From the NCBI GenBank assembly GCA_035221665.1, contig CM069137.1:75082001-75146000 (forward strand): DNA of 64,000 nucleotides, given 5' to 3'. Origin of the DNA: Okamejei kenojei (taxonomy: Eukaryota). Positions 11,410 through 46,343 of the stretch are shown piece after piece; within the stretch, counting starts at the first letter, position 1, and the number at the start of each line of letters is the position of its first letter. The position numbers and the translations under genes were made by a program. The notes beneath the pieces are model-generated. The model had not been told where the DNA came from. It did not search any database and saw only the letters and a list, made by a program, of their open reading frames with translations.

Positions 11410-11540
11410 CTCTCTGACGTCAGATTTCTATTTACCATTGACCTTGACTATCGTTATAGTCTTTGACCTTGACTTTATTTAGCATCATGAATAATAAAGT
11501 CTGACCTGATCACAGAACTAGTTCGCCATCTGCTGGCTGA
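11410..11540. promoter_or_regulatory. Candidate conserved element between HoxD13 and HoxD12 (position of mouse region XI): CRE, two TCAAGGTCA/DR0 sites and a CTCF-like motif
   Basis: TGACGTCA 11415-11422; TGACCTTGACT at 11439 and 11464; CCAGCAGATGGCGA on the minus strand at 11523-11536. Confidence 0.6.
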
Positions 11541-12309
11541 ACCGCTGTAAAACACGGGGCAGCACAGTTGTTGCAGCCGAAGCGCGGGCTTCAAGATGGT
11601 CGGTCGGTCGGTCGTACTTTAATGTTGCAGACCAATGTGAGAATTGGGCCAACTATTCAGTTTTACTTCCATGCTCTTAATGATGTGCAATTTAGAGGGC
11701 AACGGTTTTGTTTTCAAGATAGACACGACAAAATAAGTTTTTGAATAAACTAATTGAAGTGAGATTTTTCCAAGGCGGAGTGCAATGTGTTAATAACCGA
11801 GGTCTAATATTTCACATAATTTAAATTTAGCGCGTTTCACGAAGTTATGCATAATGTGGTATTTCTATATCTAGGTCAATTTTGTGCCATGCCCCTGATG
11901 CCCGGAAAACAAAGCACATCCCGGTCATGGCGTTATGTTGTAAGTAAACCTGCCTTTCTGCGCCGATAGTTGCTGTGAAATGTAAAACATAGAAATGTCC
12001 CCGTTCTGTGATTCTTCAATATTTTTCAACGCGTAGCGATAACATCTAATAAACAGAACTTAAAGGTTAACCGGGATCGTGCAAGCGGTTTGAGAAACGT
12101 CATTAACAATAAAGCAGCTTTTGTTGTAGAGAGTGCAAAGTGAGAATTCGTGGCTCAGTTGCATTCCTTGGTTACATTAAATCAAATGAAAATTTCATTG
12201 TGTGCAACCTGACACCAGCTACCAAACAAAATGGCAAAACACATATTGATCTTAAACATTATAAGTATATTCTCAATAAACAAAACAGCGATTTGATCCC
12301 GTTCGACAT

Positions 12310-12321
12310 TGACCTTGAACT
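12310..12321 (-). promoter_or_regulatory. DR0 nuclear-receptor site AGTTCA-AGGTCA (NR6A1/GCNF type)
   Basis: TGACCTTGAACT seen directly; function is inferred. Confidence 0.55.
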
Positions 12322-14348
12322 GAGCCACAGTTTAATTTTCGGGTAATTTCAAGATTTTCGAAAGTTTGGTAGAGATCCGGCTTCGGTCAACTGCCTTTGT
12401 TTGTAATTCCTTTTAGATTTTGAGGTCTGACTAAAGTAAAATCTTTTCGGGACTTCTGTAGGGAATCGTGAGATCATAAAATGACAAGAGACAAACAGTC
12501 GTTTTTCCTTCCGGTGAGGATGTGGTGGCGGTGTCTGCTTTGATTTTACTGCTCCCGATTTTAGCTGTGAAGGATCATTTTTTGTCAAGTTGCAGGTAAG
12601 TATGGATCTTAAAGAGTAAAACACGTTGTTAAATGATAGACTTGGGATCATTGATAGTAGAAACAAAAACTGACTATTATGTTTCTGCAATTGACGTTAG
12701 TTGTGTTACTTTAGAAAACAGGAGTGACTTTGGATTATCTTGTTCTCATATTCGACATAATAAATTGTACGTTTCCATAATCATATACGCATTTGGGTTA
12801 CTGTTGTTACGCTTGCATTGTTGTTGCTAAATGAAAAAGTGACATGATAATATTATATAGAATCATACAGAGTTTTGATGCATCGCATGATGTTGTAACA
12901 AAATCAGCTTAATTTGAAATTAAAAAAACAGAAAAACGCAAGGCACATGTATTTTGATGCCAGCGTCGGCAAACTCATTGGGATTTACAACAGCAGGCGT
13001 ATTGCACCATTTGCTTTCGTTTAGATTTAAAATAAAGTTTGCGGTGTTCGAATTTACCGATACTAATCTTCAGACATATTTGTCTTTTTTCTCTACTAAA
13101 AACCGTAAAATTAAGGAGAGATTAAATTAAATTACTGTATTCTATTTAAATACACGCGTTTAAACACAACATTCGAATGGAATTTAAGATCCGTATTTTA
13201 AACCCAGTCGTAAATGTTAGGCGCAGGAGAGCTACACTATCCTTTTCTGCTTAAATGTGGACACACTGGGAGCAGAGCCATTTTACTTTTCGCCTACAAA
13301 TCAATTGTAAACTTTAACGTAATTCCAATACTCCCACTGTAAATGATTTTTGGTTGATTTTTAAAAATCAAATGACTTAATATGTTGCATTTAACGCTGC
13401 GGTTGAGGGACCGACTTCCGGCAAAGACAACGGTAATGTATAGTATTGTTTAATTTTATGATTAACGTGTATATTCTTGCTAAATCCCCAAACCAGATTT
13501 TGCACATTGTATTCACTTTTTTTTAAACCGGCGTATTCGTTGTCATGAACTCATCCCTAAATTCGGCACGGAATTTATTTTCCAATCGCGTTAGAAGATT
13601 TAGATTGGCGTTCACGTGTCTGACTTTTGAACCTAGTCTTCGTTTATTCGTCCTTTTGCGAGCACACGGAAACAAAACAAAATATGTAGTATGCAAGATT
13701 TACACTTACATGCGGTCATCAAGGGATTTGGACGGTACAAAAAATACTGACCAACACACGAATAAAAGAAGCGTATCAAATATAAATTGTCCAGAAATGT
13801 CTGGTTGTAATGTTAAACGTTTATTCGACCTAAATAGATATCACTATTGTATAATATTGAGGAATAATATATTATCTCTATGAATTATCTCTATGGACAA
13901 TATATTTAATGTTCTTTAATGTTATTTTCTTTAATTATCAAATAATTTTTGAAACTGGTTTGCAATACTTTAGCGAAAGTGGGATTATTTCGGTTTTAAA
14001 CTAAGTACAATACGTGTATATCAAATATAGAATGTAACCAACATAGCAATTATTCTGTGAAATATATATGTGTTTGTAGGTCAGAATGGTCGCGTTAAAG
14101 TGTTTTCCTGAACAACATTTGCACCCCGTTGCCTCCAGCGAGCGGCGTCGCCCTCACAGCCGGCAAGTACACATGGACGTGGACTTGGCTATTTCAGTTG
14201 CGAGTTGTATTGGGACGTAGGCGGTGCCAAAAAAAGCTGCTTCCGCTTGTCTTGTGACCCTCCAGGAGCCAATCGACGAGCGCCTTTCATTTATCTCTGT
14301 CTGGAAGCTAAATAGGAGACAGAGAAGATCTGATCGCGCTTCTCGGAA

Positions 14349-14928
14349 ATGTGCGAGCACAATCTGCTAAATTCAGGCTATGTCGGCTCCCTGTTAAATT
14401 TTGCCAGCCCGGAGCCTTTCTACTTTCCCAACCTGCGTCCGAATGCGGCTCAACTGGCAAGTCTGTCACCCGCACTCTCTTACACCCGCCGGGAGGTGTG
14501 CTCGCTCCCGTGGACTTCGAGTCCATGCGCATCGCCGCCGCAGAGCCGCGCCTTCAGCGGCTACTCTCAGTCCTATCTCAGCAATTCTGTCTCCATCAGC
14601 ATCAATAGGCATGGATCAGACAAAGCAGCGGCCGGCGAAGAGCCCACCAAATACTACTTCCAAGACAGCAGCCGAAAACTGGAGGAGAGATGCAGACACA
14701 GTCAGTCCTACCCAAGTGATACCAGTATCCCTTCTTCAGTCAATATCAATCCTGCTAAGTACGAGTACCCAAACGTGGAAACATCTCTCCATGGCTCCTC
14801 CTTACATAATCAAGGCTTTGAATTGAATTCCAACTCTCCCTCTGTAAATGAAGGCGTCAAGCAATGTGTGAGCCTCAATATGTCATTACAGTCACCAGTA
14901 ACACCAGTGTGCAACAGATCCTCCGATG
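14349..14928 (+). CDS. HOXD12: Homeobox protein Hox-D12, exon 1
   Basis: MCEHNLLNSGYVGSLLNFASPEPFYFPNLRPNAAQLASL is the Hox12 N-terminus; donor GATG|gtacag, phase 1. Confidence 0.93.
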
Positions 14929-15614
14929 GTACAGTATCAGTGCAGTATTAAAACGATAACCGTTTGAAAAAAAATGCGGTATCCGTCCTCGTTCAAAGTG
15001 CTACCTGTCATCTTCATTTGTTGAACATCGGTGATCTTGGAACAAATATGCTTAAAGCAATCAAAATCACCAAGAAATAATTATTGTAATTACATTACGA
15101 GATAATACAAACGTAGATCAAACCATAGATGATAACTAGTTATTGTACCTAAAGCGTATAATTACAACGTCGTTTTAAAAAAAAAACTTTAAACGTTAGT
15201 CAACTTAAACGACAAAAAGAACATAGCATATATCTGATTTTGTTTTGTAATTTTATTTGGAGGCCAAAAAAAAAATCAAAATATCTCTTTGTTATGATTT
15301 AAATTAGTTAGCTCTGTACGTTGACGATGACAGAATATTTAGATGATCGGATGCCTTGTTTAAATATTTGTGTTTATTCTATTTGTCTTGGGGAATACTT
15401 AAACTGCTTGGTAGCGTTGGCTGTTGTTTGCATGATTAAAGACCAGCAAAGTAAAGAATATGGTATCGAATAATAACCAAATTATGAATCCTGCAACGTT
15501 GACAATGTTAGCGCGCGAACTAACAAACACATTAAAGTATCGACTAGCTTGCGATGATAACGTGGGTAAAGTGCGACAATGTCTTCAACGTTTTTTTCCA
15601 ATTTCGATTTGCAG

Positions 15615-15853
15615 GGCTCTCCTGGTGCCCGACCCAAGTGAGGTCAAGGAGGAAACGCAAGCCATACACAAAGCAACAGATAGCTGAACTTGAAAATGAA
15701 TTCCTCGCGAACGAGTTTATCAACCGACAGAAGAGAAAGGAATTGTCCGACAGGCTAAACCTGAGCGACCAACAAGTCAAAATCTGGTTTCAAAACCGGC
15801 GCATGAAAAAGAAAAGACTTGTTATGCGCGAACAAACGCTCTCACTCTTTTAG
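15615..15853 (+). CDS. HOXD12: Hox-D12, exon 2 (homeobox)
   Basis: Acceptor tttgcag|GG; [70 protein letters not shown], where [11 protein letters not shown] and [10 protein letters not shown] are D12-type. Confidence 0.97.
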
Positions 15854-18800
15854 ACCAAAGTAAAGTTTAAATGTGAGTTTCAAGGTCGTGAATTAAACTT
15901 TTTTAATGGTAATTAAGCTTGCTCGCAGAAAGCATGTAGATCAAGAATATCCATTGTTTTAATGGAAAGGTGCTCCTTTGATGTGCTGTCATATAAAACA
16001 GCAATCTACCATTACATTGCCACTGCCACTAGTCCAGGGCGTGTTGGTTTAGTTTAACCTCAGCGGCATAAAGGGACTGAGATGCAAACTATGGATACCT
16101 CGTGAAATATCGTTATAGCAGGAAATTGAACGCCGGGCAAAAAAAAAAAAAAAAAGACTTTCGGTTACCAGTATCTTGCTGCCGTGGATGACATACCAGC
16201 GCCTTAACATCACCATTGAATAGTTTCAAATGACATTTGTAGCTATTTCGTTTCTTGTTTGTTTAATTTGCTCCATGACTCTTCACTTGAGTAACAAGCA
16301 GATATTCTGCATTTTGAGAATGTAAGTACAACAGGTAATTAGAATGGAACATTCGTATTTTAATCTTAAAAATACAAATATTATGCATGCACTCTACCTA
16401 TGTAAATTGAGTAATAATAAAACGAATGTCGAAACAATTGTTCGTTTGTATATATGTCATGTTCTTTACTAATTGAATTATAAAGGTAGAGCCGGTAGGC
16501 TGATTAATTGTAAGGTGTATGCGCATCTTATCAAGATGCAGACTTAATCGTGGGTATTACATTCATCTTTGGAAAGCAGAGCGTGTTGGGGATATATGAT
16601 AGCTATGGCTGCGGATTTTAGTCAGGAGTAGGTGCGCGAATTATTTACATTCTGGCCACGCTTCAATATGTGTGCTGCTCTGATTTTCAAGACTGCGCTT
16701 ACTTCTGCCGCATTACTCTGTTACCTATTGAACCCAACTGAAATTACAGGTGAATCTGGTGCGTATAATAAAACAAGTAAGCAAATGGTGTCAAACAAAT
16801 TAAATAAATAAAACACATGAGCAATAAACAGTTACATATTTGTATTTTCCCTGGGTCTTTTAAAGACCCGCACTGAACAAAACAAGAAAGAAATGCGCTT
16901 CATTTTTAAAATAAAATTGATTTATTGCTGTCATTTTAGTTCTGTAACGTAATTACTGAAGGAGCCATTTCTAAATGTTACAATATTTATACACTAGCTT
17001 TTTAATTCTGATGTACAATATTAACCCGCTACACCAGCCGCGGTACTGGGAAGTATCAATTGTCAAACAGCCAAATCGCAAGGTACAAAGCTTCAAACTC
17101 AACGGCTTCCAAACAAAGCATTAATATTGCACCAACATTAATTTACATGCGAGCTCATTTTTCTCCGTCTATTTAGTTTACCTATCAACTTGAATTTTTG
17201 ATCGTTTAAAAAGTCTGACGAACACTTCGATATTTTGACACGATGGGAATATAATCACATCGAATCCAGACTAAACGAAATTATTTTCTCCCTATATTAA
17301 AGCTGAAACTGTGCCCAATAGAAATACTTCATAACATTAAGACACCCCGTGGTTTTTCTCTCCCACTTTCAATCTGTTGGCTTCTGATTTGATTATAGGT
17401 CATTTAATACTTCCCGGTTGGGAGGTATTTCCTCAATTATCCATTTTTCATCTGCAATGGATCTTTTTTTTGATTAAAAACAATATTAGCTGCCCCCTAC
17501 GGAAGTGTTACCAGCTAATTTCAAAGTATTCACTTACATCGCCAGAAAGAGTAAGCAACCTTTCCGTAAGACTATAGTTATTTGATCGGTTATGACGTGA
17601 TCTATTTCATTTGAAGCAATAAATGGACATTTGTTAATTTAATGTCCTACCGTTTGGCGGCGATTCAATTATTGCCGAACAGTTCAGAAATTAATATTTC
17701 CTAAGAAATGTAGCAATAATAATCGATATTCAAGAATGAAGCAAAGAGGTAACTACCTCTTCCGAAGGGGATCATTTCAATAGCCTTTTATGGACCACAT
17801 CACAGCCGGGTCCGAATTGATTCATTTCTTTAAAAAGATGGATTCAAGTTTTTCATTAATTTCAATGTTGCTATGTAATTAAGTTATGGTTATTAATGAA
17901 TGAGGGCTTTACGGGAAGCTCTGTACCTGTGCCTGAGCATTTAGCAGAGGATGTAAACGAGAGCAAATGAGTTGCAGCCTCTTTAATTTTCTTTCCAGCA
18001 AATCAGGGCGTGGGTGGGCTGAAAACAGACAGTTCTTCCAATCCCGCCATTTGTTTGGCCTGCCATTAATTAAGCATGCGCCGGGAGATTTTCATAAATC
18101 TTTTAAAACCGTTTATTGAAACATATCAATTTCAAAATAAAAATGAATCTATTAAATGCAATTATTTGACACCGCATATCTTTTTTTGGGGATCCATCAA
18201 CAATATTTCACGGGACTTAAATATGTTGAGATAATAAATGGTGAACGACCAGTTCTCAGGATTGTTACACTGTGCCTATGAAATTCAAATAGTGTTTTGT
18301 TTCAAACCACGTATGTAAATGAGAATTGCACTGCAAACTACGAAGCGACACTGTTAACAGCATTAATACAATTCGAGGGAAATATTGAAATATTTCCTGG
18401 TGGTAAAACGACTGTTTATGCCCTTGTTCCTGGGCGTCATGTTTCTTGCGAGCAAATAAAAGAAAAAAATAGGTGCCTGTAGCCCAGATGTTACATACAT
18501 TTTCCTGTGTTCCTGTGAACTGGGTAATGAAAAGAGAAGTGCTGCCTTTGTCTGGGGCCTTTTCCATTTCAGGAAGACGGGTTTTATGAGAGAAAATACT
18601 TTAGATTAGGAGACACGGAAGTAAAGTTTCCACCATTGCCACTGCATATAAAATATCGAATTAAATGTTTATATCTCCCACCAAAATCAATTCTCGGAGG
18701 ATTGGTATATATTTGCATAATATTACGCGGATTGCACTATTAAGTGTGCTAGAAACGAACTCGTGAAGTTATGCATTGCCCACGCTACCACAACTCCAAG

Positions 18801-19349
18801 TGCAATGACGATAATAACGGTAGCCTTTCTACCGACGCGTTGTCTTACATCATGGGCTGCACATTGATATACACAAACACCAACATTTGTAGGCCTCGTC
18901 TGAGTCCGAAGATATGCAAACTGTGATTCCATACATTGACGTTTCGTAATTTTTTTTGTTGATGTTATTATCATGCCGGTTCAAACAGTACTTGGAAATA
19001 AAAATGCCTGGGATTCCTGTAGTTTAGCGTTGCAAATTCACGTGTAAATTGAATTATAAATTGACTTATTAAAAAAGTCCTCCTGCCGTTCCAACGACTG
19101 TTGGTGTCTTTTGGGGAATGATTAGTCCTGAGCATGATGCTGAATTTCTAAATACTTTCCCAATGCATTAAACATAGACCTTTATTTCAACTATGTTATT
19201 CACATTCATCTGTTGGATAAACCTAACTCACACAAAATGCTTGAAAACCTAAATGCATTGCAACAATGTTATCGGATTTGCAGCAGTGCTAACCCAAGCT
19301 TTGGGAAATTGTCGACTTTCAGTTGAATCGCCCAGAATCTCTTTTTCAT

Positions 19350-19440
19350 TTCATTTTTATGGTCGAGCTGCCAGACGGTGTCTCTACATGTTTTCCAGAT
19401 ACCGGGGGCGCCATAACAAAGTTAAGGTCAAGTTAGTGCT
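19350..19440. promoter_or_regulatory. Candidate conserved element between HoxD12 and HoxD11 (position of mouse region X)
   Basis: TTTTATGG and CCATAA Cdx/Abd-B sites, a GGGGGCGCC core, and the DR0-like AAGTTA-AGGTCA at 19419-19430. The region name is assigned by position only. Confidence 0.5.
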
Positions 19441-22032
19441 TCTTTTTGGATCGCAGAAGTCTAACATACCGCTCACCGGTCGTGTACTTCGCCTGACCAA
19501 TGAAAGTTGCTTTCCACATTGGAAAGTATTATTTTTTCGTGCAGTGCAACACAAAAAAATATATAACGAGGCTAATATTTTGCTGGATCGTCAAACTGAA
19601 AACAAAGATCGTGGTCTTGATGAATTGCGTAAGAGAAGCAACGCCCTACAATCTAGATTCTTGCATCGCTTAATGTTGTATGTAAGAGAATGATATCTGA
19701 ACTTGTGCTACAAAGAAAAACATATATTGTAAATCGGTATTAACGTTGAGTCCCCATCGCCGGTCTGCAGCGTGTTAGACTCTTGCAGACTATAAGCATT
19801 AAGTGCGCTCCGAACACGAGACGGGAACAAAGGCCACGCGTAATTCCCGTTCTATTCGCAGTTATTGCCAAGTTATTGAACAGCGCTGGCTAATGCTATT
19901 TGACCGTTGAGTTTTTGATCAATTAATATAAATTACCTTGAGGTTTTGGCCAGCACTTTAATCTTTTTTTCAAATAGCTGCATTGAACAACAGTAGTATT
20001 ATAACCACATAATAACTGATTAAATCGTGTCAGTCACGAGCCTGTGAACAGTAGTCGCAAGGATGAGACATATTAATGAAACATGGCAAATATTAGGTTC
20101 CAACGGAACGTTTAAAACCTTCATATGTTGTATAGTAGTGTGTGAGTGTGCCTGTGTTAGAAGTGTCGTATTTCTAATAATTTACATGGCATGCTGCCGA
20201 ACACCCAGCATTTAATCCTTCATTGTGAGTTTGCCGTATATTTGTTATACCCTATTACCGTTAACGAGAAGATGGATCACTTAGTTGTATTAGGTTTTAC
20301 ATTTTTTATTTAACCTCCTCGGTATGCGGGGTTTAATCATTACGAGTAGTGACATCAAATTCCGATCTTTTAGCATACTAGACTTTCTTTTTCTGGTATT
20401 ATCATTATTATTTCTACAGCAAACAAATACCACACTGGAGGCTGGATCTCACTAATTAAACCAGCACAGTGTCACATGCCTTATGCTGACATCGACCGGA
20501 TGTCACATTTTATATATCTGTGCCCGTGGATTCAACGAATCTAAATTCGCATATTATTATATTTAGAAGTTTCTAGTAATCTATATATGTTTCAGAAAAA
20601 TATAATTTTGTTTCCAAAAATAAAAAGCTCAATAGTGCGTGTCAGTTCGGTCAGTATATGAAATGTATTTGCATATTCTTGTTAATCGAGAGTTCCCAAT
20701 TTATTTAGGTGTCATTCTCAGATTGCTCGAATTTGTGGCACAGAATTTTGATCTAAGCCGCCAGCTGTAAATGTGCTCAACTATGGATTTTAATCCGTCA
20801 AACATTGATCATGCATAATATGGGAGAATAACATAAAAATAAAAATGTTATTCTGCACCGGTGAACTTTTGTTTCTCTCTGTGAAGCTAATTTTCCTATA
20901 GATCAATTTAGATTTGATAGTTACTTGCAACCTTCCTCTGGTTTAATTTTCGCTTGACTGGTGTTCCATTAAGAGAGCTGCAGTGTAGCCCACGTTTGTA
21001 GATTCAAAGACTTTTCAAATCAAAATTTCGCTCTCGTGCAAATCAAACTATTTAAAAAAAAAATCCAGGTTATTGGAAGTGAGTGAATTACGGAAAATCG
21101 CATCAATGCAGGGCCTTTAATCCTTAAGCGTACTGAAAGCCATTTTCCATCTTTTTAGCATACCAGACTTTCATATTACATTTCCATTGTTTTAATTTGA
21201 AAGGAAGCTTCGCAATAATAGCGTACCTAGAGTGACTCTCGTGTCCTGAGAATATTCTAACTTTTGTAGCACGACCATATTTTGATGTTAGTCGTAATGG
21301 TGGCGCTTGCTGTGGGGTGGAGTTCAAGCAGTTCACGAGTCTCCAACCTTCAAAATCCTGTGATTTATACACACCCTCTTAGTGCTAAAATATAATATTA
21401 AATTCACACATCCTGGACAGTCGGCTTACGAAATGTAAATTATACATTATCATTTAATGTAGTAAAGCAAGATAGGTAATTGCATATTCCTGTCAGTAGC
21501 AAGTTCCTGATTTATTTAATATACTGAAGCAGAAGCAAAATAATTAAAAACTAGCCATTTCAAAATAATTTCATTATCCTTTACAATGATTGGCATTTCC
21601 ACACGTTTCTGTGTGATACATATTTTGAAAATTGTATTCATCGAATTTATAAATACATAATTTAACCATGATGTAGTTTAGCCTGCAAGTAACATTTGCA
21701 TTTGCCAACAGCAAATTATTACGAAATGTAAAAGATAATAATTTATATTATTTCTGACAGAATATGTCTCGAGTTATTATGAATATGAATTCACCAGCTA
21801 ATGAACCCCAATTGATGGTTTTGATGTTTTCAAAAGTCCAAATGCAAATATGACAGACTCCGATACGGACACTTCATTTTTTATTGTAGTTTGTTATTTC
21901 CCCAGTCAGAGCACAAATCCTCGATCATGGGAAAGAAACGCAGCTAACATGTAACTACTGAAAGCCAATAGGCTAATTTCGAATTATCTACCGGTTCCCA
22001 AGGATGGATCTTAATGACCAAAACTGATATAT

Positions 22033-22113
22033 GGTAATTTCTACATTGGATCACATGACTCGTTTACCCTCAGAATCAATCAAGATGAATTGCACGTCAG
22101 CTTACGTTCCCAA
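22033..22113 (+). promoter_or_regulatory. HoxD11 proximal promoter (CCAAT plus E-box)
   Basis: taatttctacATTGGaTCACATGA...gcacgtcagcttacg about 170 bp upstream of the ATG; resembles recalled Hox11 promoters. Confidence 0.6.
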
Positions 22114-22223
22114 TCTTTTTTTTCTTTCGCCGACCCGTTCATACGCCTTTAGAGTAGAATAGATGGAGCATGCTTAACGCCATCAATCCTGATAATTTGT
22201 TCTCGAAACCACGAAAACAAAAC

Positions 22224-22827
22224 ATGACTGAGTTTGAAGAGCGTGGTAGCTGCAACTCCAGCATGTATCTACCCAGCTGCACCTACTATGTTTCAGGCCA
22301 AGATTTCTCGGCAGTGTCAACGTTCTTACCGCAGACGACTTCTTGCCAAATGACATTTCCGTACTCCTCTAATTTAGCTCAGGTCCAACCTGTTCGCGAA
22401 GTATCGTTCAGAGACTACGGGTTAGAACTTCCGACCAAGTGGCATTACAGGGGCAACTATACTCCTTATTGCCCTGCAGAAGAGATCATGCACAGAGACT
22501 ATATCCAGCCACCGGCCAGGACGGGAATGTTGTTTAAAAATGATAATGTATACAGTCAGCGTGCAAGCTCAAATCCATCTTGCAATTTCTACACCACAGT
22601 TGGCAGGAATGGAATACTCCCGCAAGGTTTTGATCAGTTTTTTGAGACAGCCTATGGGATTCCCGACACTTCTAATTATGAACATTTGACCGAAAAGTCC
22701 GTGTCTACGTGCCAGAGTATTACAGCGTCTGATAAAGTTTCTGTGGATCAAACGAAAGAAAGTGCAACCGAAAAGAACACCGGCGAGTCCTCCGGTAACA
22801 GTGTGGCCGACAAAGACAGCCTATCCA
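22224..22827 (+). CDS. HOXD11: Homeobox protein Hox-D11, exon 1
   Basis: MTEFEERGSCNSSMYLPSCTYYVS...YSSNLAQVQPVREVSFRDYGLE...VGRNGILPQGFDQFFE is the Hox11 N-terminal domain. An in-frame upstream ATG at 22170 is possible; donor TCCA|gtaggt, phase 1. Confidence 0.92.
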
Positions 22828-23368
22828 GTAGGTGCATTGGTAACCCAGGGGTAGAATATAGGGCCAACACATTTTGTCTCACAGATTTTATGTGAAATTT
22901 TATAAGCAGACGCAGGATTTTATATACCCTATAAGATCTGCTTTAAAGCTGTAAAGATTGTTTACGATGGGAAATCAGTTTAGGTGGGCTTTTTGAATAT
23001 GCAAAATCATGATTACTCGATGTGTAAGTTCCTGTATTAATTTCTGTAATGTGACTATTATTTGTGCGATGATATTTTTGTTCTATGTTTCGCGAATCCT
23101 TTCGTTCGTGCAAACAAGACCGAGCTTAATTCAGGATTCGTTTCTTCTACTTAACTTTCAATATGGGTATAACCATGCAATAAATTAATTAAACACGCGA
23201 TTACATATATTCATTGTATATCTCTATGGTGATTAATTAAAGGTAGCCGTGTGTGACCGCTATGTTTTTGCGCCATTTTACATCAAGTTTAACTAGGTAT
23301 AAGAAAATAAAGATCGCGTCTATTGGTTTAAGATAATTTGTAACTTTTTAAAACCACTTTTCCATCAG

Positions 23369-23601
23369 CTACTCTGCGATCCAGAAAGAAAAGATGCCCC
23401 TATACCAAATATCAGATTCGGGAACTTGAGCGAGAATTTTTCTTCAATGTCTACATCAACAAAGAGAAGCGTTTGCAATTGTCGAGGATGTTGAACCTCA
23501 CCGACCGACAAGTCAAAATATGGTTCCAGAATCGCAGAATGAAGGAAAAGAAACTTAGCAGAGACCGCCTGCACTTTTTTACTGGTAATCCTTTATTGTG
23601 A
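23369..23601 (+). CDS. HOXD11: Hox-D11, exon 2 (homeobox; missing from the ORF track)
   Basis: Acceptor cttttccatcag|CT; manual translation gives [76 protein letters not shown]. Confidence 0.96.
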
Positions 23602-24889
23602 CTATGATACAGCATACCCTGATGGATTCCCTTTGGCCGACTCTTCATTGCCTTAGTCAATATTTATTTACACAAGGAGGGACTGCAAGTTTGATGGAAA
23701 CGGTTTTGCTGTTCTTGTATGGAAACCAATTTAAACGATTAACATAGAATTGAATTTGAGATGACGCGATGGTGCAGATAACATGGACGTAATGTTGATT
23801 AGGAAACATTCGTACCTCAGCATAGATGTTATTCCGTTCCAAAGGAAGAAGTTTGATTCTGCGGGATATTCAGCGACAATAAACGGTTTTTATTTTAAAC
23901 AGCAAACTGGGGTAAGGGAGGGCTAAAATTAAATATTGTTAGTTCACAGCGATGGGTCAATCACATAAGACAATGTGTTCGATTTCTTCTTTTAGTCGAC
24001 GTTAGCCAAACTAACCAGAATGTTTTAAGTTGTGTATTCCGGTGAAAAGAAGAAATGCATATTTATTACTTTACCCTTCCAGTCTATGTCATGAGATAAT
24101 TGTAATATACTGTAGCTAGGGACGTTTAAAGCAGATGTGATGTTAATAATAATGTTTCCGGGTTACACACTAGTTGACATTTCACGGTAAACGCATGTGA
24201 TAGGATGTCTTTCCTTTCCAAATAAACATTCAATATGTTAATATTGAAATTTCAATATGTTATTCCAAACATTTCAAATAAAACATCTTTTTACGATAAA
24301 ACGACCATTTGCGTCTTTATAAGAAAATTCCGTGCAAATGGTTCCAAAGACCACCGTCAAATAACATAATTATGATTAAATTCTGCAATATAGCGAAAAG
24401 CAAACATTATAGTTTATTGGATTAATTACGAAATAGTGGAAACCGGAAATATAATCCGTGTTGCCTAATCCTTTGACTATTTTCGGCATACATGGATCCC
24501 AGGTTCTTATGTTTCACGTCTCTCTGAGCAGCCATTTAGTATACAGCCTTGATACAAAAATGGAAACACAATGTGCCCTGTTTTAGATGTAAAGCTATAT
24601 GTTAAACTGAAGTTTTGCTTCTTAAGCATAATAGAAAGTTGTAATTTGTTTTTTATAAATAGTTTGATTTAATATTATTACCAGTCAGTACCTGGAAATC
24701 AATTGATGGGTCTATTTCGATTACTTGTGAGGACAAAAGACAAATAGCAACATATGTGAACAATTTGCTGAATTTCAGCTGAAGGGAGGCACTTAAATGT
24801 ACACATTAGATCGGACAACTTGTAGCTCACCTCGGAGACTTATTAGAAGAGCGAGTTAAGCTTCGCAAAACTCTTCGAAAAAGAATTGC

Positions 24890-25355
24890 CAAATTTCCGT
24901 GCCGCATGACATAGCTTTGCTGTTTACAAAACCTTGAACTGTCTAGACAACATCGTAAAGTTCACTGCTCCAAACAGCTTAATGGCTACTTATTGCACCT
25001 TCTAGTCACGAAGATGGGCTTCCGCATTCTATTCCAAACAAAAGGATCGAAGGAAATCAAAGTAAATAGGGCCGACTAGATGATTTTAAAAAGGAAGAAA
25101 CCACAACATCAATTACATTTATAAAGTTTCACATTTGAAAAAAAAAGTATAACAAAAACTGGATTGTGCATAAATTAAGTCCATTGAATCTGTCAAACTT
25201 AATGAAGACCAGGATGATGCTCAAAAAGTGGTGTCGTCTCCTGAGCATACTAAAGCATATTTCGTGAAGAGGATGCTTATAATGTTGCCTTTGAACTTCT
25301 ATAAAGTCAAGGTCATCACCTTTAACCTTTTTAAAGACATAGGCGCCTGGTGGCT
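24890..25355. promoter_or_regulatory. Candidate regions VIII/IX (nuclear-receptor elements 3' of HoxD11)
   Basis: tttacaAAACCTTGAACT at 24929-24940; TGCCTTTGAACT 25286-25297, AAGTCAAGGTCA 25304-25315 and TCACCTTTAACCT 25316-25328. Mouse RVIII/RIX lie in this interval and RIX carries nuclear-receptor sites. Confidence 0.65.
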
Positions 25356-28300
25356 GTTGGGTTGCTCTTGCAGCTTCCCCAGCTCCACAGTAAAACAGAA
25401 TCTCTAATGTTTATAATATACTATTGTGTGCGCATGCTTAAGTACTCAACTAGTAAAAATGAAAAAAAAACAATACTCTTATTACTAAGCGTTAAGATTA
25501 TATTCAACAATACTCTTGAATGTTGCTATGAACATCCATTTGCTCCTCGTTGGGCTTTACACCGTATAGTTTATTCACATGCGAGCTGAACTAGTCAAAA
25601 TATTCATCGTATGTCTGTACACTACACCAATCATCCGCGAGGGTCTTGGTTTCCATGGAAATGGGAGAAAATGTAATTTATGACTCAGTGGTTGAAGATT
25701 TCCACGTATGTGTGACACCTCCACATATTCCGTGCTCTTATAATGTTTAATTCTTAACTATGTAAAGGTGACCCGGTGCAATTCTTCCTTCAATGACTCG
25801 TAACACATAATATAGTTAGATTAAGGTTTTAAAAAATAAACGCGGAGCAGCGAAAATAATTTTACAGTGATACTCTGAACATTGTCAAAGATGGTTGCTT
25901 TTTATAAAGAGCCACATGGAGGCGCACTCCAGCCCATGACCACGACCGTACTTTGCAAACGAGGTCTGTGGCAATGGCTTTCGGAGATGAACATGAAATT
26001 AATTGAAATAACGTGAAGCGGTAAAGTTCTGTTGCCATCAGATATCTGGAGCAGCAGGCCGACGAAGGTAGTTAAGTGAAAGGGAGTTCGTTGTAATGGT
26101 AAACTGCGATTTTTTTTTTATTGGTTTGGTTTATTAGTCGCTTCGAAGAAAAAAAATCTTCATGTGCTCGCTGGAATGAGTATAAAATCATATTTATTAA
26201 AAAATGCCCCAATGATATTTCTCCAAAGGGTACGTTCAATGTTACTTAGTTTATTTGTTAAAATCGTTGATCAGATGTGTTTGACGTAGAAATGTTGGAC
26301 TTGCATCCATGGGGCCGAACAAAGCTTTTGTAACGAGCAGTAGAAAAAAAATAGGTTTGGGAATTATTTATCTAGCAATTTCAAATAATAATTGTAAATG
26401 TATATAGTAAACTATAGGGAACATAATATTTCTACTTCCAAATTCCGAGTAACGTGAAAATAGCTAAGGCGAACAGATAAATGCTGAACAGTTACGTTCA
26501 CATCCTGCTGATGTGGCCGGTTGAAATGCCAGCACACCCTCTTTTAACCAACGCTTTCTGATTATTGCTTCTCCAAGATCTCTCCTCATATCTTACCCAC
26601 TTTCCAGAGTGCTTTACAAAAGTATAAAGCATATAGTGAAGAAGGCCGCCTAACGTTTCAGCTTATACATTCCACCTCGATAATAAAGAATGTTAAACCA
26701 CAATATTAATTTCCTTAAAAAGAGGAAACAATTCATGTCATCGTTTGAATTTCTCCTTTCTTTTGCAAAAGTGGAAATATTGGAGGAAACATGTACTTTA
26801 GCAATGAAAAATGTGCAGCTACCGCTTTATATCACTGACAATAGAGACGAACGATATTTGTCAGTGACTTATATAATTCTGATCATATTCCATCAGCTGT
26901 TCAAGTGGAATCAAATGTGCACTCCACTGGACACATTTAAAATGTGAAATGTTCATCTTTCTTTCAAAATGGGAATAGTTTTCAAGAATTATCTCTATTA
27001 TACACAAACAAATACTCCTTCATCTGGCAATTCAAAAAAAAATCTCCACATTAGCAATGTATTTCATAATAGGCAACCGTTGATCAGGGTAAATGGCAGA
27101 AATTACAACTTCATCTCCAATAATATGTTGACATTAATTGGGTACATTTGCTTTTCACCCATAGGCCCATGCTAGCGAGCTTAAGATCACAGTCTGGCCG
27201 TGATTTCTTATTTCGCGACAACGGGGAAGTTCATCCTTAGCAGAGTATCCTCGCATCATATCGCACTTTTTATTCCATTTTTGTGGGGAAATTTCGATCC
27301 TTTTGTCCTCGTAAAAATCACCTTTATTGCAGTTTAAAATGACGAGAAACTATTCTGGGAGAGTTTATTGTTTATCTGCCTGTTCATTTTATAAGGCCAT
27401 AAAAATAGTGCGTGTCTTTTGCTCAGATAAAATCCCGCCGAAAATGCATGGACATGTATTATTTGAACAGAGGGAAGTTAAGACTCTTAGATCGCCGATC
27501 GTTTAGTGATAGCAAAAATCGCAAAGGTTTATTTATGTGACAAGGAGTGAAGTGATTTAAATATGAGGAGTTGTGTTAGTAATTTGCAATTTGTAGGCAA
27601 GCGTAATGAAAGCGGCAGCCGTGTACACAATACATTGGCTTTCATACACAATTTAGCTGAAAACATTCGATGAAGAAAAATATTTCCTTAGTATCTACAG
27701 GTGGTAACATTAAAACAAAGTTTGTCAAAGAACAACCGCGGTGGTACTGCCGAACGCTTAACATGCATTTTGGCCGGATGTTTATTGAAAATTTAGATAA
27801 CAAGGAAGATTTTCGAACAGTCCTTTTCAGTGTTTATCCGAGGAGCTTTAAGCTGAAAGACCAGGTTGAAATTGATGGCATGCTCCAGATGATAATAATT
27901 TTAAAATTTGACATAGAAATATGGAGAACGTCCGAATATCAGACTAAAAGTGCAGGATATAAGTGGACGGCGGTCTCTGGGTCATAAGACCACCGCAGTT
28001 TAGGCTAATGAGGAAACCAAGTGGAATGAAAGAAGGGATAATACGCTAATTAACTCCATAAGGAAAACAAAATAAATTTTATCCGACGAAATGAGGCGAC
28101 GATTTTGAAGTGCTTGGTCAACATTTTTGGAGAAATTAATAATAGTCTTTGTATTATTTTGTTAGGAAAATTATTATTATAAGCTATGTGTTGGAGAATG
28201 GCGAATCTGTTATATGGTAAATCACTGCAAACATAATAAAGTTGCCTCCATGTTCCTGCTTAGCTCTAATATCCATTTAGCTACCAATATATAAAATCCT

Positions 28301-30043: not shown

Positions 30044-31699
30044 GACAGTCTTCTGACTTTGAATTAACAACGTTGAACTTAAAATAGTAATGTGAAATAG
30101 GGTCGATTAGTTTACAAAATGTGGTACAAAATATAGTTTCACAAATACCAGTTTTCAACTGTAGGGATGCAGATTGTCTAATAAAATGGTATACATTTGT
30201 GCCTGATTTGAATGATCCGCGCATGCCTACCTTATTATCGATGTTCACGGCCATTTTTGTATAATTTTAAATGTTTAGCACAAGACTAAGATTGACCAAA
30301 TTCTGAATCAATTACCGAGTGATGTCATTACATTAAAAAAAATAAAAGAAATGGCGCAGCCGTGACAACCTTGACCCTGAATCTGTCCCCTTCACACTTC
30401 TTGGTGTGAAGTAGGAAATATCGTTAGTTTTATGTGGATGTCAAATTGATCCTCCATAGCTGATCCCCATCGAGCTGGTTTTCCTAATAGTCATCAGTGA
30501 ATGTGTGCTCTTATTTGGCATTTTGCCTCGAGAAGCGCAGAGAGGTCAGAAAGCGCTTGCTACGGGTAAGAGCACAAATAGCATGAGCATCCGTCATACT
30601 AAATTGAACAAACACCGAGCGGTGGACCCCAGGAGGGCGTTCTGGCAGCGTTTCTGTTACCTTACATGATAGTTCGATTTTGAGAGGCTGACACCTTTTC
30701 GTCCTATTATGGAAAATATTTCCACCGATCATCATCGGCGATGGAACAGGGAGAACGTGGTAAGAACTCAACCTTAAGGGAGAGTTTTTAGAATAAAGTA
30801 ATAAAACCCAAGCGCCAATAATCTTCATTAAAGGCCATTCTCTGCCCTAACAAATTAATGAGAGGTTTTGCAAACGCGGCGCTTCCTCTCCCACAGTCTT
30901 AAATCTTGTATGTCCGTGTAAATTTTCGCACGCAAATACCGCATTAAGAAGTGTGCATTGTCACCCCGAGGTGTTTCTGGCTTTTACCCAGCATTGACAT
31001 TTTGTATAATAGAAAGCATAGGCGCCCACCGTGGTGAGGGTGGGAAATAGACATTTTTTTTCTCACGAAGATTTGGTTTAACTTGCAACGAAACATTTGC
31101 AGATGTGAAACGATTATTTAGAGAGCAAAAAATTTACTGATGAATTCTGGAACGGATAAACAGGAGCAAGGAATCTACCGATGAATACCAATGTGGATGG
31201 AGATGTTGATTCCACGCATCGATTTCACAACACACTTGTTCAATGCCAAAACACCGAACGGCCGCATTGGTTCTACGTGGGTATAAGGTATCCTGCACAC
31301 ACTGGACACCCTTTTGGTTTGCAAAATTACGATAGGTATCAGCACTCTGCTCTGCATTCGTTTCATTGCGAGGAGGTTTACGGTGTAATAAGAAATGCCT
31401 GCAGTTAGTTTTTATCGATCGACGTCTTTGTTGTTAGAATTTCTAGGAACTAAAACGTTGTTGTACTTTTAGCAAACAGACTACAACCGGAATGCTGATT
31501 ATTTTCCCGTTGATGGCAGGGATGAGATTGTACAACGTAAACGCTGCATGCGTTAAAGGATTTGAGTGGGGCTCTGTGCGCAGATTAAAGTGAACAGGAG
31601 CGGGCGCCGCTTTGGAATTGGGTTTGTAGGTGTCGCTGTTGTCCACAGTTAAGATCAAATTCAACTGCCTGGACATCATGTGATGTTCGGGGAGGTAGT

Positions 31700-31839: not shown

Positions 31840-32578
31840 ATGTCCTGTCCCAATAGCTCTCCCGCTACCAACTCGTTTTTAGTAGATTCCCTGATTAGTG
31901 CTTGCAAGGGTGACAGCTTCTATTCAAACAGCTCCCTGTACACGCCGTCGAGTATGGACATGGGAACTTACGGAATGCAGACCTGTGGACTGTTCCCGAC
32001 CATGACTAAACGAGGAGAGATCACCCATCAAAATATGAGCATGAGCGTTCATCCGTATTTATCTCAGGTAGATGGTTGGGCTGACCATTCCAGACCATGT
32101 CGAATTGAGCAACCTGTTACTCCTCAGATGCCCACGTGTTCTTTTCCTACTAGCATAAAGGAAGAAAGCACTTGCTGCATGTATAATTCTGATAAGCGGG
32201 TCAAAGTAAACCCTACCACAATTCCCACCTATTCCAGGCTGGTATCCGAAAGCTGTTCTATTGAGAACCCTGAGATTCCCATCCCGGGATATTTCAGACT
32301 CTGCCAGGCTTACCCACTAGAGAAAAGTCTGGACTATAATCACAGCGGAGAGCTCAGTTCCAATGTAATGCCGCATTCAAACCCTGGGTTTATCAGTAAA
32401 CTTCAGGTGTCCGACCCATCTCCAGCGGAAACGAAAGTAAACGAGAAACCAAACGCACAGGAATCCATAAAGGGGATATATGTGGAAAGTCCAGAGCCAA
32501 AGCCGAGTTTACTGGAGGCCAATGCAACCGCCAAAGACGGCGAGTCTGGCTCGGAACTGTCGGACAAAGAGGCGGAAG
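31840..32578 (+). CDS. HOXD10: Homeobox protein Hox-D10, exon 1
   Basis: [29 protein letters not shown]...[11 protein letters not shown]...CRIEQPVT...[10 protein letters not shown]...PGYFRL is the HoxD10 signature; donor GAAG|gtgagc, phase 1. Confidence 0.96.
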
Positions 32579-33630
32579 GTGAGCGATGGAAAGATTTAAT
32601 GTGAACATGGCAGTATTGTGCGCTGATACAAAACCTTACATTGCCATTATAATGCGGGATCTATGGTGGCGATATATTTGGCAAGTTGTATGTACTTTTG
32701 TTCAATTATTTCCCTTTTAATAAAGACATTGGATATTAAGGTGAACTGTTGGTAATTTTGCTTAATAACGACTGGTAAAGACACAATAAAGGCCAGCACA
32801 GATGGTAGATACGGTAATGTACCAACCTTCCAGTACCAAAGACGATATTTATGAAGAATGACTATTCATATATTAATTCTATAGACGTACTTTGGTGTCT
32901 TGCAGTGTAAGTTACTTGCAACATTTCCGACTTGAAAGGTTTGAAGGGGAAGTATTAACATTGTCAATTGGCTTGAAATACTTTACATTAAATATATAAC
33001 ATATTATTATAGCCTGAGGGGGGGAAAAGTTCCATTCAAATACATTGAAATATTGCTAGCCGTTTATAATCATAAATTGGAATCGAGCCGCTTTCTAAGA
33101 GCCAGCCGTGATACGTTTAATGTGAAGATTTACTTCTGGAATTACTGTCAGCATATTTGTGCTGTCGGTATCATAGAATCACAACATTTAGTTATTAATT
33201 TGAAAAAAACGACCTATTATTGGGGGATAAAACCTGTGATCTGAAAGCAGCAGCTCACAGGTAATAACGTTACCTGCAAACCCATTGTGTTCGTGTGAGT
33301 AGGGTATATTTGGGTAGATTAACAAATCTCTGCTAAATTGTTCAAATTATATGAAAAAAAGTATTCTGTAGCATTATTTGCCAAACTGCAAATATATATT
33401 TTCAATAACTTTAATGAACCACATTTATTTTTCCAATTATAATAATTTGTATCGACTTTTGTAAATTAATTTGACCAATGAGTAACTTATTAATTTGTTG
33501 GCGTTGCGAATAACTAATTAGGTCGTAATTTTTTTTTGTATTTAATCCTAAGTGTTGAGCCTTAAATGCACTGCATTGTGTAAGAGGCGTGTTTACCAGA
33601 ATCTCATTTCTTGTTTCTTACTTCTGATAG

Positions 33631-33902
33631 AAGAGACCAAAACTCCGATAAGCAACTGGCTAACAGCAAATAGTGGAAGGAAAAAGAGATGTCCTTATAC
33701 AAAACATCAAACTCTGGAATTAGAGAAAGAATTTTTATTTAATATGTATCTGACTCGTGAGCGCCGTCTAGAGATAAGTAAGTGCGTGAATCTGACCGAC
33801 AGACAAGTGAAGATCTGGTTTCAAAATCGCAGAATGAAGCTGAAGAAAATGAGCAGAGAAAACCGAATTCGAGGACTGACCACTAACCTGCCCTTCTCGT
33901 GA
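33631..33902 (+). CDS. HOXD10: Hox-D10, exon 2 (homeobox)
   Basis: Acceptor cttctgatag|AA; [73 protein letters not shown]. Confidence 0.97.
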
Positions 33903-42936: not shown

Positions 42937-45594
42937 CGTCGCTCCATTATACCAAATTGTAGACTAGGGGTGAGAACGGAAAAAATATATAAAAAGAGGT
43001 TAAAAGGCAACTAGCCCATTTTTGTATGGAATTTTCTTTAATTTAGAATACAGCAAAAGCCGAACCCTGACTTTTGAGAGGATTTTCAAAATAAAAAAAT
43101 CGCATCACCATGTAAACTCTATAAAATAGTTGCGAATTAAACGCGTGTAAACATGCGCTCGCTTAACATTGAAAGGTCCAACTAATTTCATGGAAACGTA
43201 TTATTAATTAATTACATAGAAGAAGCTTTCTATATAAAAATATTTGTAAGAACAAAATGGACAGATTTTTCAGAACTAGGCACACCTGTTGTAAGCCGTA
43301 GTGGTTTCATTTTCTAACAAAAAACACCATATTTGTGTCTGCTCTTCTTGCCTTTGTTGGAATGATGTTCATTTGCCGAAATTCTAAAATGTGATCTCTT
43401 TGCAATGGGTCAAGGCTTATACTATAAACAAGGTCGGCGCGATAGATAAACCGGAGTAGGATTCGAGAGAAAGGATATATCGGGCTTTTTGTTCTTTCAC
43501 AATTTTAATAAAAGACTTTAGCAATAAAGAAAATTGTAACGTTTAAACCAGTGCTGCATTAGTACAATAAAAAAAGCACATCGTTCGAGCGACCTTGCTA
43601 ATAATTATAAATAACAATAGGTGCAGTTATTTTTGCAGTTTTATATGTTTATTTCAACCGTTAAAGAGTAAAACAAATTGAGCCAATTGCACGATATTTG
43701 TTTACTATTTGCTTGAGGGGAAATTTTACAATCCTCTCAATAAAATACTTCTTTCAAAAAATGCAGTCTGCTCCTGATGTTTCTGAAACAGTTTCAAGCA
43801 TTCGGAAGCAGATAGAGATTTTGAAAGTAAAATAGAATAAAACACATCACACTCACTGGTTGGCCGTGGCACGGGGTTTGCTGCGAGAACGATTCCCGGA
43901 ATAAACCAATTTCCAATTAAAATAATACCGAGGCCGCAAAAACAGGGAATAAAATCTTCAGATGAATCTTAAATTACAATCTCCGTTTGAAAGTTACTTT
44001 TCAATTAAAAGTATGTCCTTTTGTAAGATTTCCAATGAGACGTTTGCGGCTAATTACATTTTAAATATATACCGGGTGCTTTATCTTAAAAATGTATCCA
44101 GCAACATTGCATAATTACAAATAATTATATATTTCTTTCCATTTGTTTTCAGCTGATCTTTGAGAGAATTATTCGGTAAATCAGATATGTATTAATTTAT
44201 ATTTTTCGGATCTTTAACTTATGTCTTTTGATAAAATGGGTTTGCAATTGTTTTCAGAAGGCAAAAAAAAGGTAACACAGTTGAAATAAAACTTATTGTA
44301 CTCGTAGGCTTCCCATGTCTGTCAGGCCTAGTTTTTAAAACGTTAAAATGACTTGAATGGTTTGTAAAAAAAAAAAGAGCATTGGAAAAATAATCTTAAA
44401 TTGAAATTACCTTTCCAAATAAATGTGCTTAAACGAACCAAACATGCGATCATCCAAATATCTTGGCGAAAATCAGTAGCACGCACATATATATGTGCGG
44501 AACAAAATTAATATGCTGAATATTTTGTATTGCAAATTAACGTAAATATTCCATATTCTGGGAAGTGTTTTCTTGGATACTGGACTGTGGCGCTGACCGA
44601 TGTCCGCGGTCTAGAAAACATTTAAAATCGGGCAAATGATCCCGTTTATGCCCATTTCAATCTTTAAACGTGGTAGTGTTACATTAGGATTAAGGGGTAC
44701 ATCGTGTTTAAAACTGCGAATTGTCAGCTGCGTATTTATTTTATGCAAATAAATGAAAAAAAGTTCAGAAGAATATAGTTGCTGTGGTCCATTACATATT
44801 GGACTAAATTATTGGTTGTGCCCACTTTGAACGAACATACAGTGCATGCATCCAGGAAGAACTTGAATTCTTCGGGTTAGCAGTTACTGAAAACATTGCT
44901 GTTTTTATTTCCCCGCAGCAGTTTGTGGATTGAGACAAGCATCGGAGCGTGAGGAACAAAGTTCACTGGTGAATTCAAGTTTCACCAGATCAAGCACTCT
45001 TTTCCATTAAACTTTAAGCGCAGTCGCTTGAATTGGGGGAAAGGACAGGGGGGAGGGGGGGGGGGGGGAAGTGGGATTGGGGTTTATTTCTGGGCAACTC
45101 GTGAACCTGGGAATGGACGCCTCTAACCTAGCCTTGGTATTTCTCCCGGATTTTGCAGCTCTTGATGAAATTTCAACCACAGTCTGCAAACTTCGTGCTG
45201 CCCTGCAGACCCGAGCTGCTTTTCTCGCCAATGACGTCTGCCATGGGTGAAATGATGGAAATTGTATTCAGAAGCATGATTTTCATTAGCTAGTGATTAA
45301 CCTCCAAGTTTCAGTCAAGCGAGCATATTTTTTTTAAATCTGAGTCAAGGATAACTCTTTCCCCCGTTCTTAGTAGACTATTGTTTCAGAAAATATATTA
45401 ATGCTATTAGATAAAACAGTTTATTTTAAACAGGCATCGGATTTTGTGCATCTGCTTCCTATTTAGACCTAATAATGGGAATAATATTGCCAACTCACTT
45501 CAGTCTGTACGTAAATGGCAGGTATCCGTGCGCCAAAGTACCTATATAAATATAAGACACACGTTTATATACATATATATATTGATGGCTATTG

Positions 45595-45678
45595 ATATAT
45601 TATATATATATATATATATATAATATGTGTGTGTGCGCGCGTGTGTATATAATATGTGTGTGTGCATGTATGTGTGTG
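45595..45678. repeat. (TA)n/(TG)n microsatellite
   Basis: Seen directly. Confidence 0.85.
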
Positions 45679-46343
45679 AAGTTAAGAGACAGACAGTGAC
45701 AGGCGCAAGCAGATTTTACAAGCTTTACAGAAACATCCTAAACCAAATAATCCCTAATGTTAATTCTAACTTTAACCTTTTAGCCCTCGAGCCTCCCCCA
45801 TCCCCCATTCCCCCTTTTTGACTGTGTCTTGACCTTGAGACCGGTCTCACCTTGTTGTGTTCTGAAATCTAATTGCTGTGCTGTAACCGGGCCAGTTTCA
45901 TTTCTCTTCAGCTGAGTGGCGCACGTATTTCATGTTTTCTGTGATGCGGCCCGCCTAATTGTAATGAGAGGGTGCTGAATATATTAATCCGCATGTTATC
46001 TTTTTTTTCTCCCCCCCGATCAGTGTGCCCTCTACTTTCCTAAAAAAATATCATTTCTCAGCACAGACGTGTTGTCCGCGAAGGCAGTAACTGTAAACGG
46101 CAGTCTTAAGATCTCTTCAGCCGGCTTACAACTGATCTGCGGTTTCAAAGTGAAGCAGTCACAGCACCGAGGCAGTGGTGCACCTTCAGTATTAGCGAGT
46201 ATGTTGCACGGGGCATCAGTGCACACTGGACCTGCATTGCCATCATGAACAGTGTGTAGACCGAGCAAGTCAATAATACCACTCCAGAACTGCTTAAGCA
46301 TTTATTTTGTTTATATTCATTGGCCACTCTTGAGTCTGCACAG

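Follow-up and report, generated by a model that had tools for sequence, protein, structure and literature searches.

Direct-repeat nuclear-receptor sites in the posterior HoxD, HoxA and HoxB clusters of Okamejei kenojei: candidate elements of an NR6A1 brake

Gerard et al. are said to have described, in 1993 and 1996, a silencer in regions VIII/IX that sets the Hoxd11/Hoxd10 boundary and the position of the sacrum. According to the 1996 work, region IX reportedly silences Hoxd11 anteriorly and binds retinoic acid receptors (RARs) and COUP-TFs in vitro, and its mutation shifts the sacrum forward. In the mouse, loss of Nr6a1 moves Hoxd11 forward by 6–7 somites, gives lumbar vertebrae a sacral identity and raises Hoxb13, the most Nr6a1-sensitive gene, more than 200-fold, and a reanalysis of chromatin immunoprecipitation data placed putative NR6A1 sites in all four Hox clusters (PMC9755267). 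Somite peaks linked to Hox10–13 are enriched in NR6A1 motifs, with a negative correlation with accessibility (PMC10563765). Whether NR6A1 acts directly on posterior Hox genes is left open in a 2024 review. Here we consider a 64,000-nucleotide window of the Okamejei kenojei HoxD cluster (GCA_035221665.1, contig CM069137.1, positions 75,082,001 to 75,146,000, forward strand), for which a preliminary description had proposed that copies of the 9-mer TCAAGGTCA and direct repeats of AGGTCA half-sites with no spacer (DR0) form an ancient nuclear-receptor brake on the posterior genes.

An excess of TCAAGGTCA and DR0 sites is present in posterior HoxA, HoxB and HoxD and is specific to these posterior parts. 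A homeodomain search of the genome found three Hox clusters, D on contig C7, A on C2 and B on C31; neither a fourth (HoxC) cluster among the 72 homeodomain matches nor a HoxC copy of any module was found in these searches, which give lower bounds. Comparison DNA consisted of 140 kb of HoxA, 200 kb of HoxB and 60 kb of HoxD flanks, and control DNA (400 kb) of 20 other homeobox loci and 20 flanking or arbitrary stretches; "posterior" denotes the DNA that starts 10 kb 5' of the Hox13 homeobox and runs to the Hox10 homeobox. The exact 9-mer occurs 11 times in the posterior halves (4 in D, 2 in A, 5 in B) vs. 1.49 expected, and 7 times vs. 1.16 in posterior A and B alone (P = 2e-4). The anterior halves of the three clusters (249 kb) hold 1 copy vs. 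2.37 expected, and the control loci 2 vs. 3.82. With 16 alternative posterior boundaries the pooled P went from 2e-4 to 5e-7, and that for A and B from 0.03 to 2e-4. Among the 65,614 non-simple 9-mers of the repeat-masked, pooled posterior halves, TCAAGGTCA ranks first (P = 5e-9) and the overlapping word GTCAAGGTC second; in posterior A and B alone TCAAGGTCA ranks second. The comparison with shuffled sequence and with the anterior cluster, which the preliminary description had called for, upholds the enrichment.

In the window itself, the five exact copies reported earlier (11439, 11464, 12310 and 45830 on the minus strand, 25307 on the plus strand) are all present, four of them between HoxD13 and HoxD10 as had been claimed, and so are the five variants at 1174, 5287, 19419, 24929 and 30366. 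The earlier estimate of less than one chance match per 64 kb proved sound: 100 dinucleotide shuffles of the window gave a mean of 0.56, with none of the 100 reaching five, and the genome-wide count (26,294 in 2.757 Gb) corresponds to 0.61 per 64 kb. The probability of at least five copies is 4e-4, or 3.6e-3 with the tandem pair scored as one. The variants at 5287, 19419, 24929 and 30366 are in the best case 1–2 mismatches from DR0, and since DR0s with 2 mismatches are as common as 65 per 100 kb in control DNA, each variant requires support of its own. This comes from human identity for 19419, from a 15-mer in common with HoxA for 5287, and only from position for 24929.

The excess has a definite geometry. 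When 27 half-site arrangements were tested, i.e., direct (DR), inverted (IR) and everted (ER) repeats with spacers of 0–8, DR0 was the sole geometry above controls posteriorly, with 22 sites at ≤1 mismatch (p = 0.0008); IR3 (0.052) and DR1 (0.07) came next, and lone AGGTCA half-sites were flat. Against 40 local dinucleotide shuffles, DR0 reached 15 vs. 5.6 in posterior A and B, and 5 vs. 1.8 in posterior D, a value attained by 3 of the 40 shuffles. The perfect form AGKTCAAGGTCA has 3 posterior copies vs. 0.06 expected. These sites consist of DR0s of AGGTCA or of TCA-extended half-sites, as in the NR6A1/GCNF element consensus. They do not resemble a classical retinoic acid response element (RARE), as the posterior parts show no enrichment of DR2 or DR5 and the single perfect posterior DR2 lies in HoxA. 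DR5 marks the other end of the clusters: all six perfect DR5s, which serve as a positive control, lie in anterior cluster parts, and anterior A and B hold 17 DR5s vs. 8.7 in local shuffles. Anterior DR5/DR1 elements with clear HoxA and/or HoxB paralogues were seen at window positions 63234–63275 and at C7:75164076, C7:75185424 and C7:75185642, the positions of the Hox4 and Hox1 RAREs, and likewise served as a positive control. One other form of perfect DR0 is found 5.3 kb past HoxA1. Upstream of HoxB13 (C31:12499863-12502897), three plus-strand copies of TCAAGGTCA, one of them in a perfect DR0, are packed in 3 kb. The words TATGTCGA (3, 3 and 6 copies) and TAATTTCAA (5, 6 and 7 copies) are also over-represented in posterior D, A and B, respectively.

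Table 1. Receptor sites, CTCF-like motifs and posterior HoxD coding spans in the window.
Feature	Position	Strand	Remarks
DR0 with one mismatch, AGGTCATGGTCA	1174..1185	+	HoxD14-HoxD13 interval; unsupported
Three-half-site chain AGGCCA AGGTCA AGGTGG	5287..5305	-	2.3 kb 5' of HoxD13
HoxD13 coding span	7583..8882	+	Open reading frame, homeodomain
Tandem GTCAAGGTCA pair, 25 bp apart	11439..11475	-	2.6 kb past HoxD13 stop
Reverse CTCF-like motif with extended flank	11514..11536	-	59 bp from second receptor site
Perfect DR0 AGTTCAAGGTCA	12310..12321	-	D13-D12 interval
HoxD12 coding span	14349..15853	+	Open reading frame, homeodomain
32-nt HOTAIR/HOXD conserved element (region X)	19405..19436	+	D12-D11 interval
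HoxD11 coding span	22224..23601	+	Open reading frame, homeodomain
DR0 with two mismatches, AGTTCAAGGTTT	24929..24940	-	Inside fp26 offset range
Composite: DR1-like / AAGTCAAGGTCA / DR1-like	25285..25329	.	1.7 kb past HoxD11
Composite part, DR1-like	25285..25297	-	
Composite part, AAGTCAAGGTCA	25304..25315	+	
Composite part, DR1-like	25316..25328	-	
CTCF-like motif, forward	25912..25925	+	About 0.6 kb past composite; 2 mismatches to consensus
Overlapping DR0 variants	30366..30383	-	1.5 kb 5' of HoxD10; unsupported
HoxD10 coding span	31840..33902	+	Open reading frame, homeodomain
Lone TCAAGGTCA	45830..45838	-	514 bp 5' of HoxD8 start codon

The tandem pair behind HoxD13 (Table 1), whose individual sites are imperfect DR0s, has a paralogous pair that follows the HoxA13 homeobox by 1.6 kb, with the same strand and a distance of 26 bp between its sites (p = 0.01); the two pairs have the spacer end and the downstream flank in common. 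The counterpart behind HoxB13 has a DR0 chain as its first site and a degenerate second site (flank alignment p = 0.065). Across the genome the pair pattern is matched 49 times, often within tandem repeats. All three clusters carry a reverse CTCF-like motif and a common flank 56–112 bp past the receptor sites, and the 22-letter pattern built from these three copies occurs exactly 3 times in 2.76 Gb, one per Hox13. In the window this motif has 1 mismatch to the CTCF consensus used in our scans. By horn shark offset the pair maps to fp17, an unnamed footprint listed for 10 of 11 species ranging from human to horn shark (PMC3091776). Mouse CTCF sites between Hoxd12 and Evx2 are likewise reverse, and a trunk border of topologically associating domains has been called between Hoxd13 and Hoxd12 (PMC8559674, PMC10335938). 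The motif at 11514–11536, oriented as expected and conserved between paralogues, is a putative CTCF boundary site. The idea that receptor sites generally accompany CTCF-like motifs was considered and rejected, with 4 of 31 posterior modules within 150 bp vs. 2.6 expected; 3 of those 4 are the same ancestral Hox13 module. Just past the CTCF-like site there is a short GGTC tandem run (11594–11615), one unit shorter in relatives. More CTCF-like motifs occur at 31506 (+), 17490 (-), 50557 (+) and, between HoxD9 and HoxD8 and with 1 mismatch, at 42923 (+).

The composite element past HoxD11 has paralogues past HoxA11 (C2:61876822) and in the HoxB13-B10 spacer (C31:12561747), and a flank pattern derived from all three copies matches nowhere else in the genome. 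The middle of the composite is a perfect DR0 in the HoxB copy, and the 9-mer is kept in D and B only. The composite lies at the edge of footprint fp26 (regions VIII/IX), which horn shark offsets map to 24791–25295, and it is likely the region IX homologue, as judged by offset rather than by sequence alignment. A CTCF-like motif nearly identical to the one that follows the composite in the window stands about 0.55 kb past the HoxA copy. The HoxB spacer retains this Hox11 3' element, and no Hox11 homeobox was found there, so the element seems to be a regulatory remnant of a gene that has been lost.

The 32-nt element between HoxD12 and HoxD11 agrees with the human HOXD copy in 30 of 32 positions and with the HOXC copy in 30 of 32 (minus strand, visual comparison with Table S1 of PMC7139118). 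Its mouse counterpart is at mm10 chr2:74,679,612-74,679,644; counted from there, the horn shark offsets would put fp17 near chr2:74,673,100, region XI near 74,673,850 and regions VIII/IX at roughly 74,684,800-74,685,900 (±0.3 kb). The last 18 nt of the window element (19419–19436) are a chain of half-sites, AAGTTA AGGTCA AGTTAG, in which identity rises to 18/18 for HOXD and 17/18 for HOXC. The element is single-copy in the genome, and no HoxC partner was found. The only candidate for a HoxA paralogue of the chain, at C2:61869076, is degenerate (p = 0.24) and was rejected. In the main text of PMC7139118 the terms "motif", "nuclear receptor", "binding site" and "CTCF" appear 0 times. Adjoining the chain, a GGGGGCGCC run at 19401–19412 resembles half a CTCF motif below the threshold of the CTCF scan, and both human copies retain its GGCGCCCC part.

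The remaining sites are less clear. A 15-mer at 5291–5305, a pattern selected after both copies had been seen, has 11 copies in the genome, one of which, at C2:61856030, is on the same strand 5' of HoxA13; the flanks of the 5287 chain do not align with this upstream copy. The site at 12310 belongs to a DR0 class with 0.39 copies per Mb genome-wide; it matches region XI in distance only, and horn shark has no region XI in the footprint table (PMC3091776). Flank alignment with HoxA and HoxB revealed no paralogue for 12310, 24929 or 30366, and no motif-centred one for 1174. Alignments of 1174 with HoxA, 5289 with HoxB and 45830 with HoxA reached p ≤ 0.05 and were discarded, as they lie in low-complexity flanks or end short of the motif. 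The 9-mer at 45830, the sole exact match in the anterior 249 kb, is probably a chance occurrence, because it has no paralogue and is within the chance rate.

Modules common to paralogous clusters are older than the cluster duplication. Copies of this kind with alignable flanks exist for 11439–11536 and 25285–25329, only weakly for 5287, and for 19405–19436 via human HOXC. None was found for 1174, 12310, 24929, 30366 and 45830. The match to bony vertebrates is at the level of sequence for 19405–19436 and by position in the table for fp17 and fp26 (PMC3091776). The suggestion of one module per posterior interval did not survive. The D13-D12 interval has two, D12-D11 lacks the exact 9-mer and holds just the 19419 chain, no module lies in D10-D9 (184 N bases of this interval lay outside the motif scan), and 45830 is assigned to chance.

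Taken together, the sites are very probably selected nuclear-receptor elements of some kind. With moderate confidence, and judging from sequence, we favour the view that they are redundant direct NR6A1 silencers which delay Hox10–13 until the trunk-to-tail switch. The genome codes for the NR6A1 DNA-binding domain (C33:8689406), 67 of 69 residues of one exon being identical to PDB 5KRB. On that strand a second nuclear receptor gene follows 120 kb downstream (C33:8809812-8810328), an arrangement like that of the NR6A1-NR5A1 tandem. In the proposed mechanism, NR6A1 of trunk-stage axial progenitors would occupy the posterior Hox DR0 sites and recruit co-repressors, several sites acting redundantly, until Gdf11 and miR-196 clear NR6A1 and release the posterior genes. 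The Hox13 3' module would place the brake at the CTCF boundary insulating Hox13, and some sites, chiefly the DR1 flanks, would probably be used by other receptors too. More tentatively, the ancestral single cluster could already have had a polarised code, with an anterior retinoic acid "go" signal on DR5 and a posterior NR6A1 "wait" signal on DR0; regions IX, X and XI, the HOTAIR element and the Hox13 DR0 pair might then be parts of one redundant direct brake. This would account for the weak or absent phenotypes of single deletions.

A number of observations limit these results or count against the NR6A1 silencer reading. In the window-only word search TCAAGGTCA ranks 22–94 of 42,910 9-mers, depending on Markov order, which is not decisive since the 9-mer had been chosen by eye; the enrichment is regarded as real because it is replicated in HoxA and HoxB. 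The posterior boundary was itself chosen after the motif map had been viewed, and the HoxA pair is a paralogue of the HoxD pair, so the two are not independent draws. Motif-centred HoxA/HoxB flank alignments were obtained for 2 of 9 receptor sites (the 11439 pair and 25307), no independent support was found for 1174 and 30366, and the 45830 motif is absent from its HoxA and HoxB counterparts. Base 11447, which is the outer position in the first 9-mer, is changed in one related organism, among the differences listed for cross-species contigs of window 10900–24800, a comparison of little power (~3% divergence, with coverage of the stretch in 2 of 4 runs). DR1 at ≤1 mismatch is also in excess in posterior A and B, mostly in HoxB (15 vs. 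4.7 in local shuffles). The core common to all three copies of the composite consists of the two DR1-like flanks, and the HoxA copy lacks the 9-mer, which points to other receptors too. Gain of Nr6a1 raised Hoxa11 (PMC9755267), and region X transgenes gave limb expression and deletion of the region had no phenotype (cited in PMC7139118). Finally, COUP-TFs, RAR/RXR, ESRRB and NR5A2 also bind DR0 or TCA-extended half-sites (PMC4446430), so the sequence is unable to name the reader.

The last point opens the way to silencers whose main readers are COUP-TF (NR2F) or unliganded RAR/RXR, with only an indirect effect of NR6A1 on posterior Hox genes. This leans on the in vitro binding to region IX that Gerard et al. 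reportedly observed in 1996. It agrees with the conserved DR1-like flanks of all three Hox11 3' copies, with the DR1 excess of posterior A and B, and with the binding of these receptors to DR0 (PMC4446430). We nevertheless consider it unlikely: the top word is a TCA-extended AGGTCA, DR1 is not in excess in posterior D (1 vs. 1.8 in local shuffles), and the Nr6a1 mutant phenotype is that expected from a lost silencer of the region IX type (PMC9755267).

It is less likely again that the sites are activating elements for monomeric NR5A/ERR receptors in later tissues (cloaca, gonadal ducts, fins), apart from the axial timer. The word TCAAGGTCA is an extended half-site of the NR5A/ERR type as well (PMC4446430), the sites at 11439 and 11464 are imperfect DR0s, and the limb expression from region X transgenes (cited in PMC7139118) fits such a role. 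Yet other words of the NR5A type show no consistent enrichment, TCAAGGCCA counting 2, 0 and 0 and CCAAGGCCA 0, 0 and 0 in posterior D, A and B, where we take the NR5A consensus to be YCAAGGYCA. Moreover, many of the conserved sites run to two or three direct half-sites, beyond the need of a monomer.

A role at the RNA level, by pairing of non-coding Hox transcripts or as 3' untranslated region signals to which the receptor motif is incidental, appears very improbable. The 32-nt element is indeed transcribed and oligonucleotides of its two paralogous copies pair in vitro (PMC7139118), and the Hox13 3' sites lie on one strand in all clusters. Oppositely transcribed paralogous copies are, however, necessarily complementary, receptor sites occur on both strands, and the element is single-copy here; all five teleosts tabulated have the HoxD copy without a HoxC copy (PMC7139118). 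Rfam gave no match within the window. Chance with post-hoc choice of the word, to which the window-only rank and the unsupported sites at 45830, 1174 and 30366 lend something, is the least credible account of the set, being largely refuted by replication in HoxA and HoxB, first rank in the pooled search, paralogous flanks and human identity, and it remains the best reading for 45830.

As to the setting, the plus strand of the window codes for HoxD13, D12, D11, D10, D9, D8 and D5, as judged by open reading frames and homeodomains, and an intron-split HoxD14-type homeobox lies about 2 kb 5' of it (C7:75079780-75080200). The presence of D5 and D14 points to a cartilaginous fish. Cross-cluster BLAST was run with interspersed repeats masked. 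A short interspersed repeat is found 5' of HoxD13 (79–480 and 1941–2140) and is dense in the HoxB13-B10 spacer (C31:12.51-12.57 Mb); the masked share is 16% for the HoxB stretch vs. 6% for A and D.

These results provide a short list of conserved sites that bears on whether NR6A1 represses posterior Hox genes directly. If the NR6A1 reading is true, several old HoxD elements are tied to one factor, the HOTAIR conserved element receives an explanation at the level of DNA, and a timing repressor acquires a candidate link to the CTCF boundary by which Hox13 is insulated. Alterations of such sites could be relevant to how trunk vertebral number has evolved.

Three conserved sequences common to all four clusters were reportedly described by Matsunami in 2010 and may overlap the present modules. 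In a literature search that covered few subscription papers, no account was found of paralogous posterior Hox DR0 modules or of the HOTAIR element as a receptor site, and "Nr6a1" occurs 0 times in PMC10335938 and in a Hoxb13 CTCF preprint. The restraint of posterior Hox genes by NR6A1 is already known; the site map, the age of the sites, the DR0/DR5 polarity and the rereading of region X appear to be new. The Hoxd11 regions VIII/IX (fp26 in PMC3091776), 1.2–1.7 kb past the Hoxd11 stop by horn shark offsets, resemble the composite in position and in their half-sites; the present element differs in having paralogues in HoxA and the HoxB spacer and in being one of several DR0-type modules. The HOTAIR/HOXD element of PMC7139118 is matched in sequence and in its D12-D11 position; RNA-RNA pairing and enhancer activity are proposed there, whereas here the most conserved part is read as a chain of receptor half-sites. 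The Oct4 proximal promoter, bound by GCNF, COUP-TF, RAR/RXR, ESRRB and NR5A2 (PMC4446430), packs DR0-like and DR1-like sites as at 25285–25329, but the Hox elements are intergenic, repeated across the cluster and known here from sequence alone. The anterior Hox RAREs and CTCF arrays (PMC8559674, PMC10335938) are likewise paralogue-conserved cis elements, including a reverse CTCF-like site between D13 and D12, but the present sites are DR0 rather than DR5 and posterior rather than anterior. Finally, the work on NR6A1 and posterior Hox timing (PMC9755267, PMC10909835, PMC10563765) concerns the same target genes and the same motif class; its excerpts name no sites, whereas the present analysis gives specific sites and their age.

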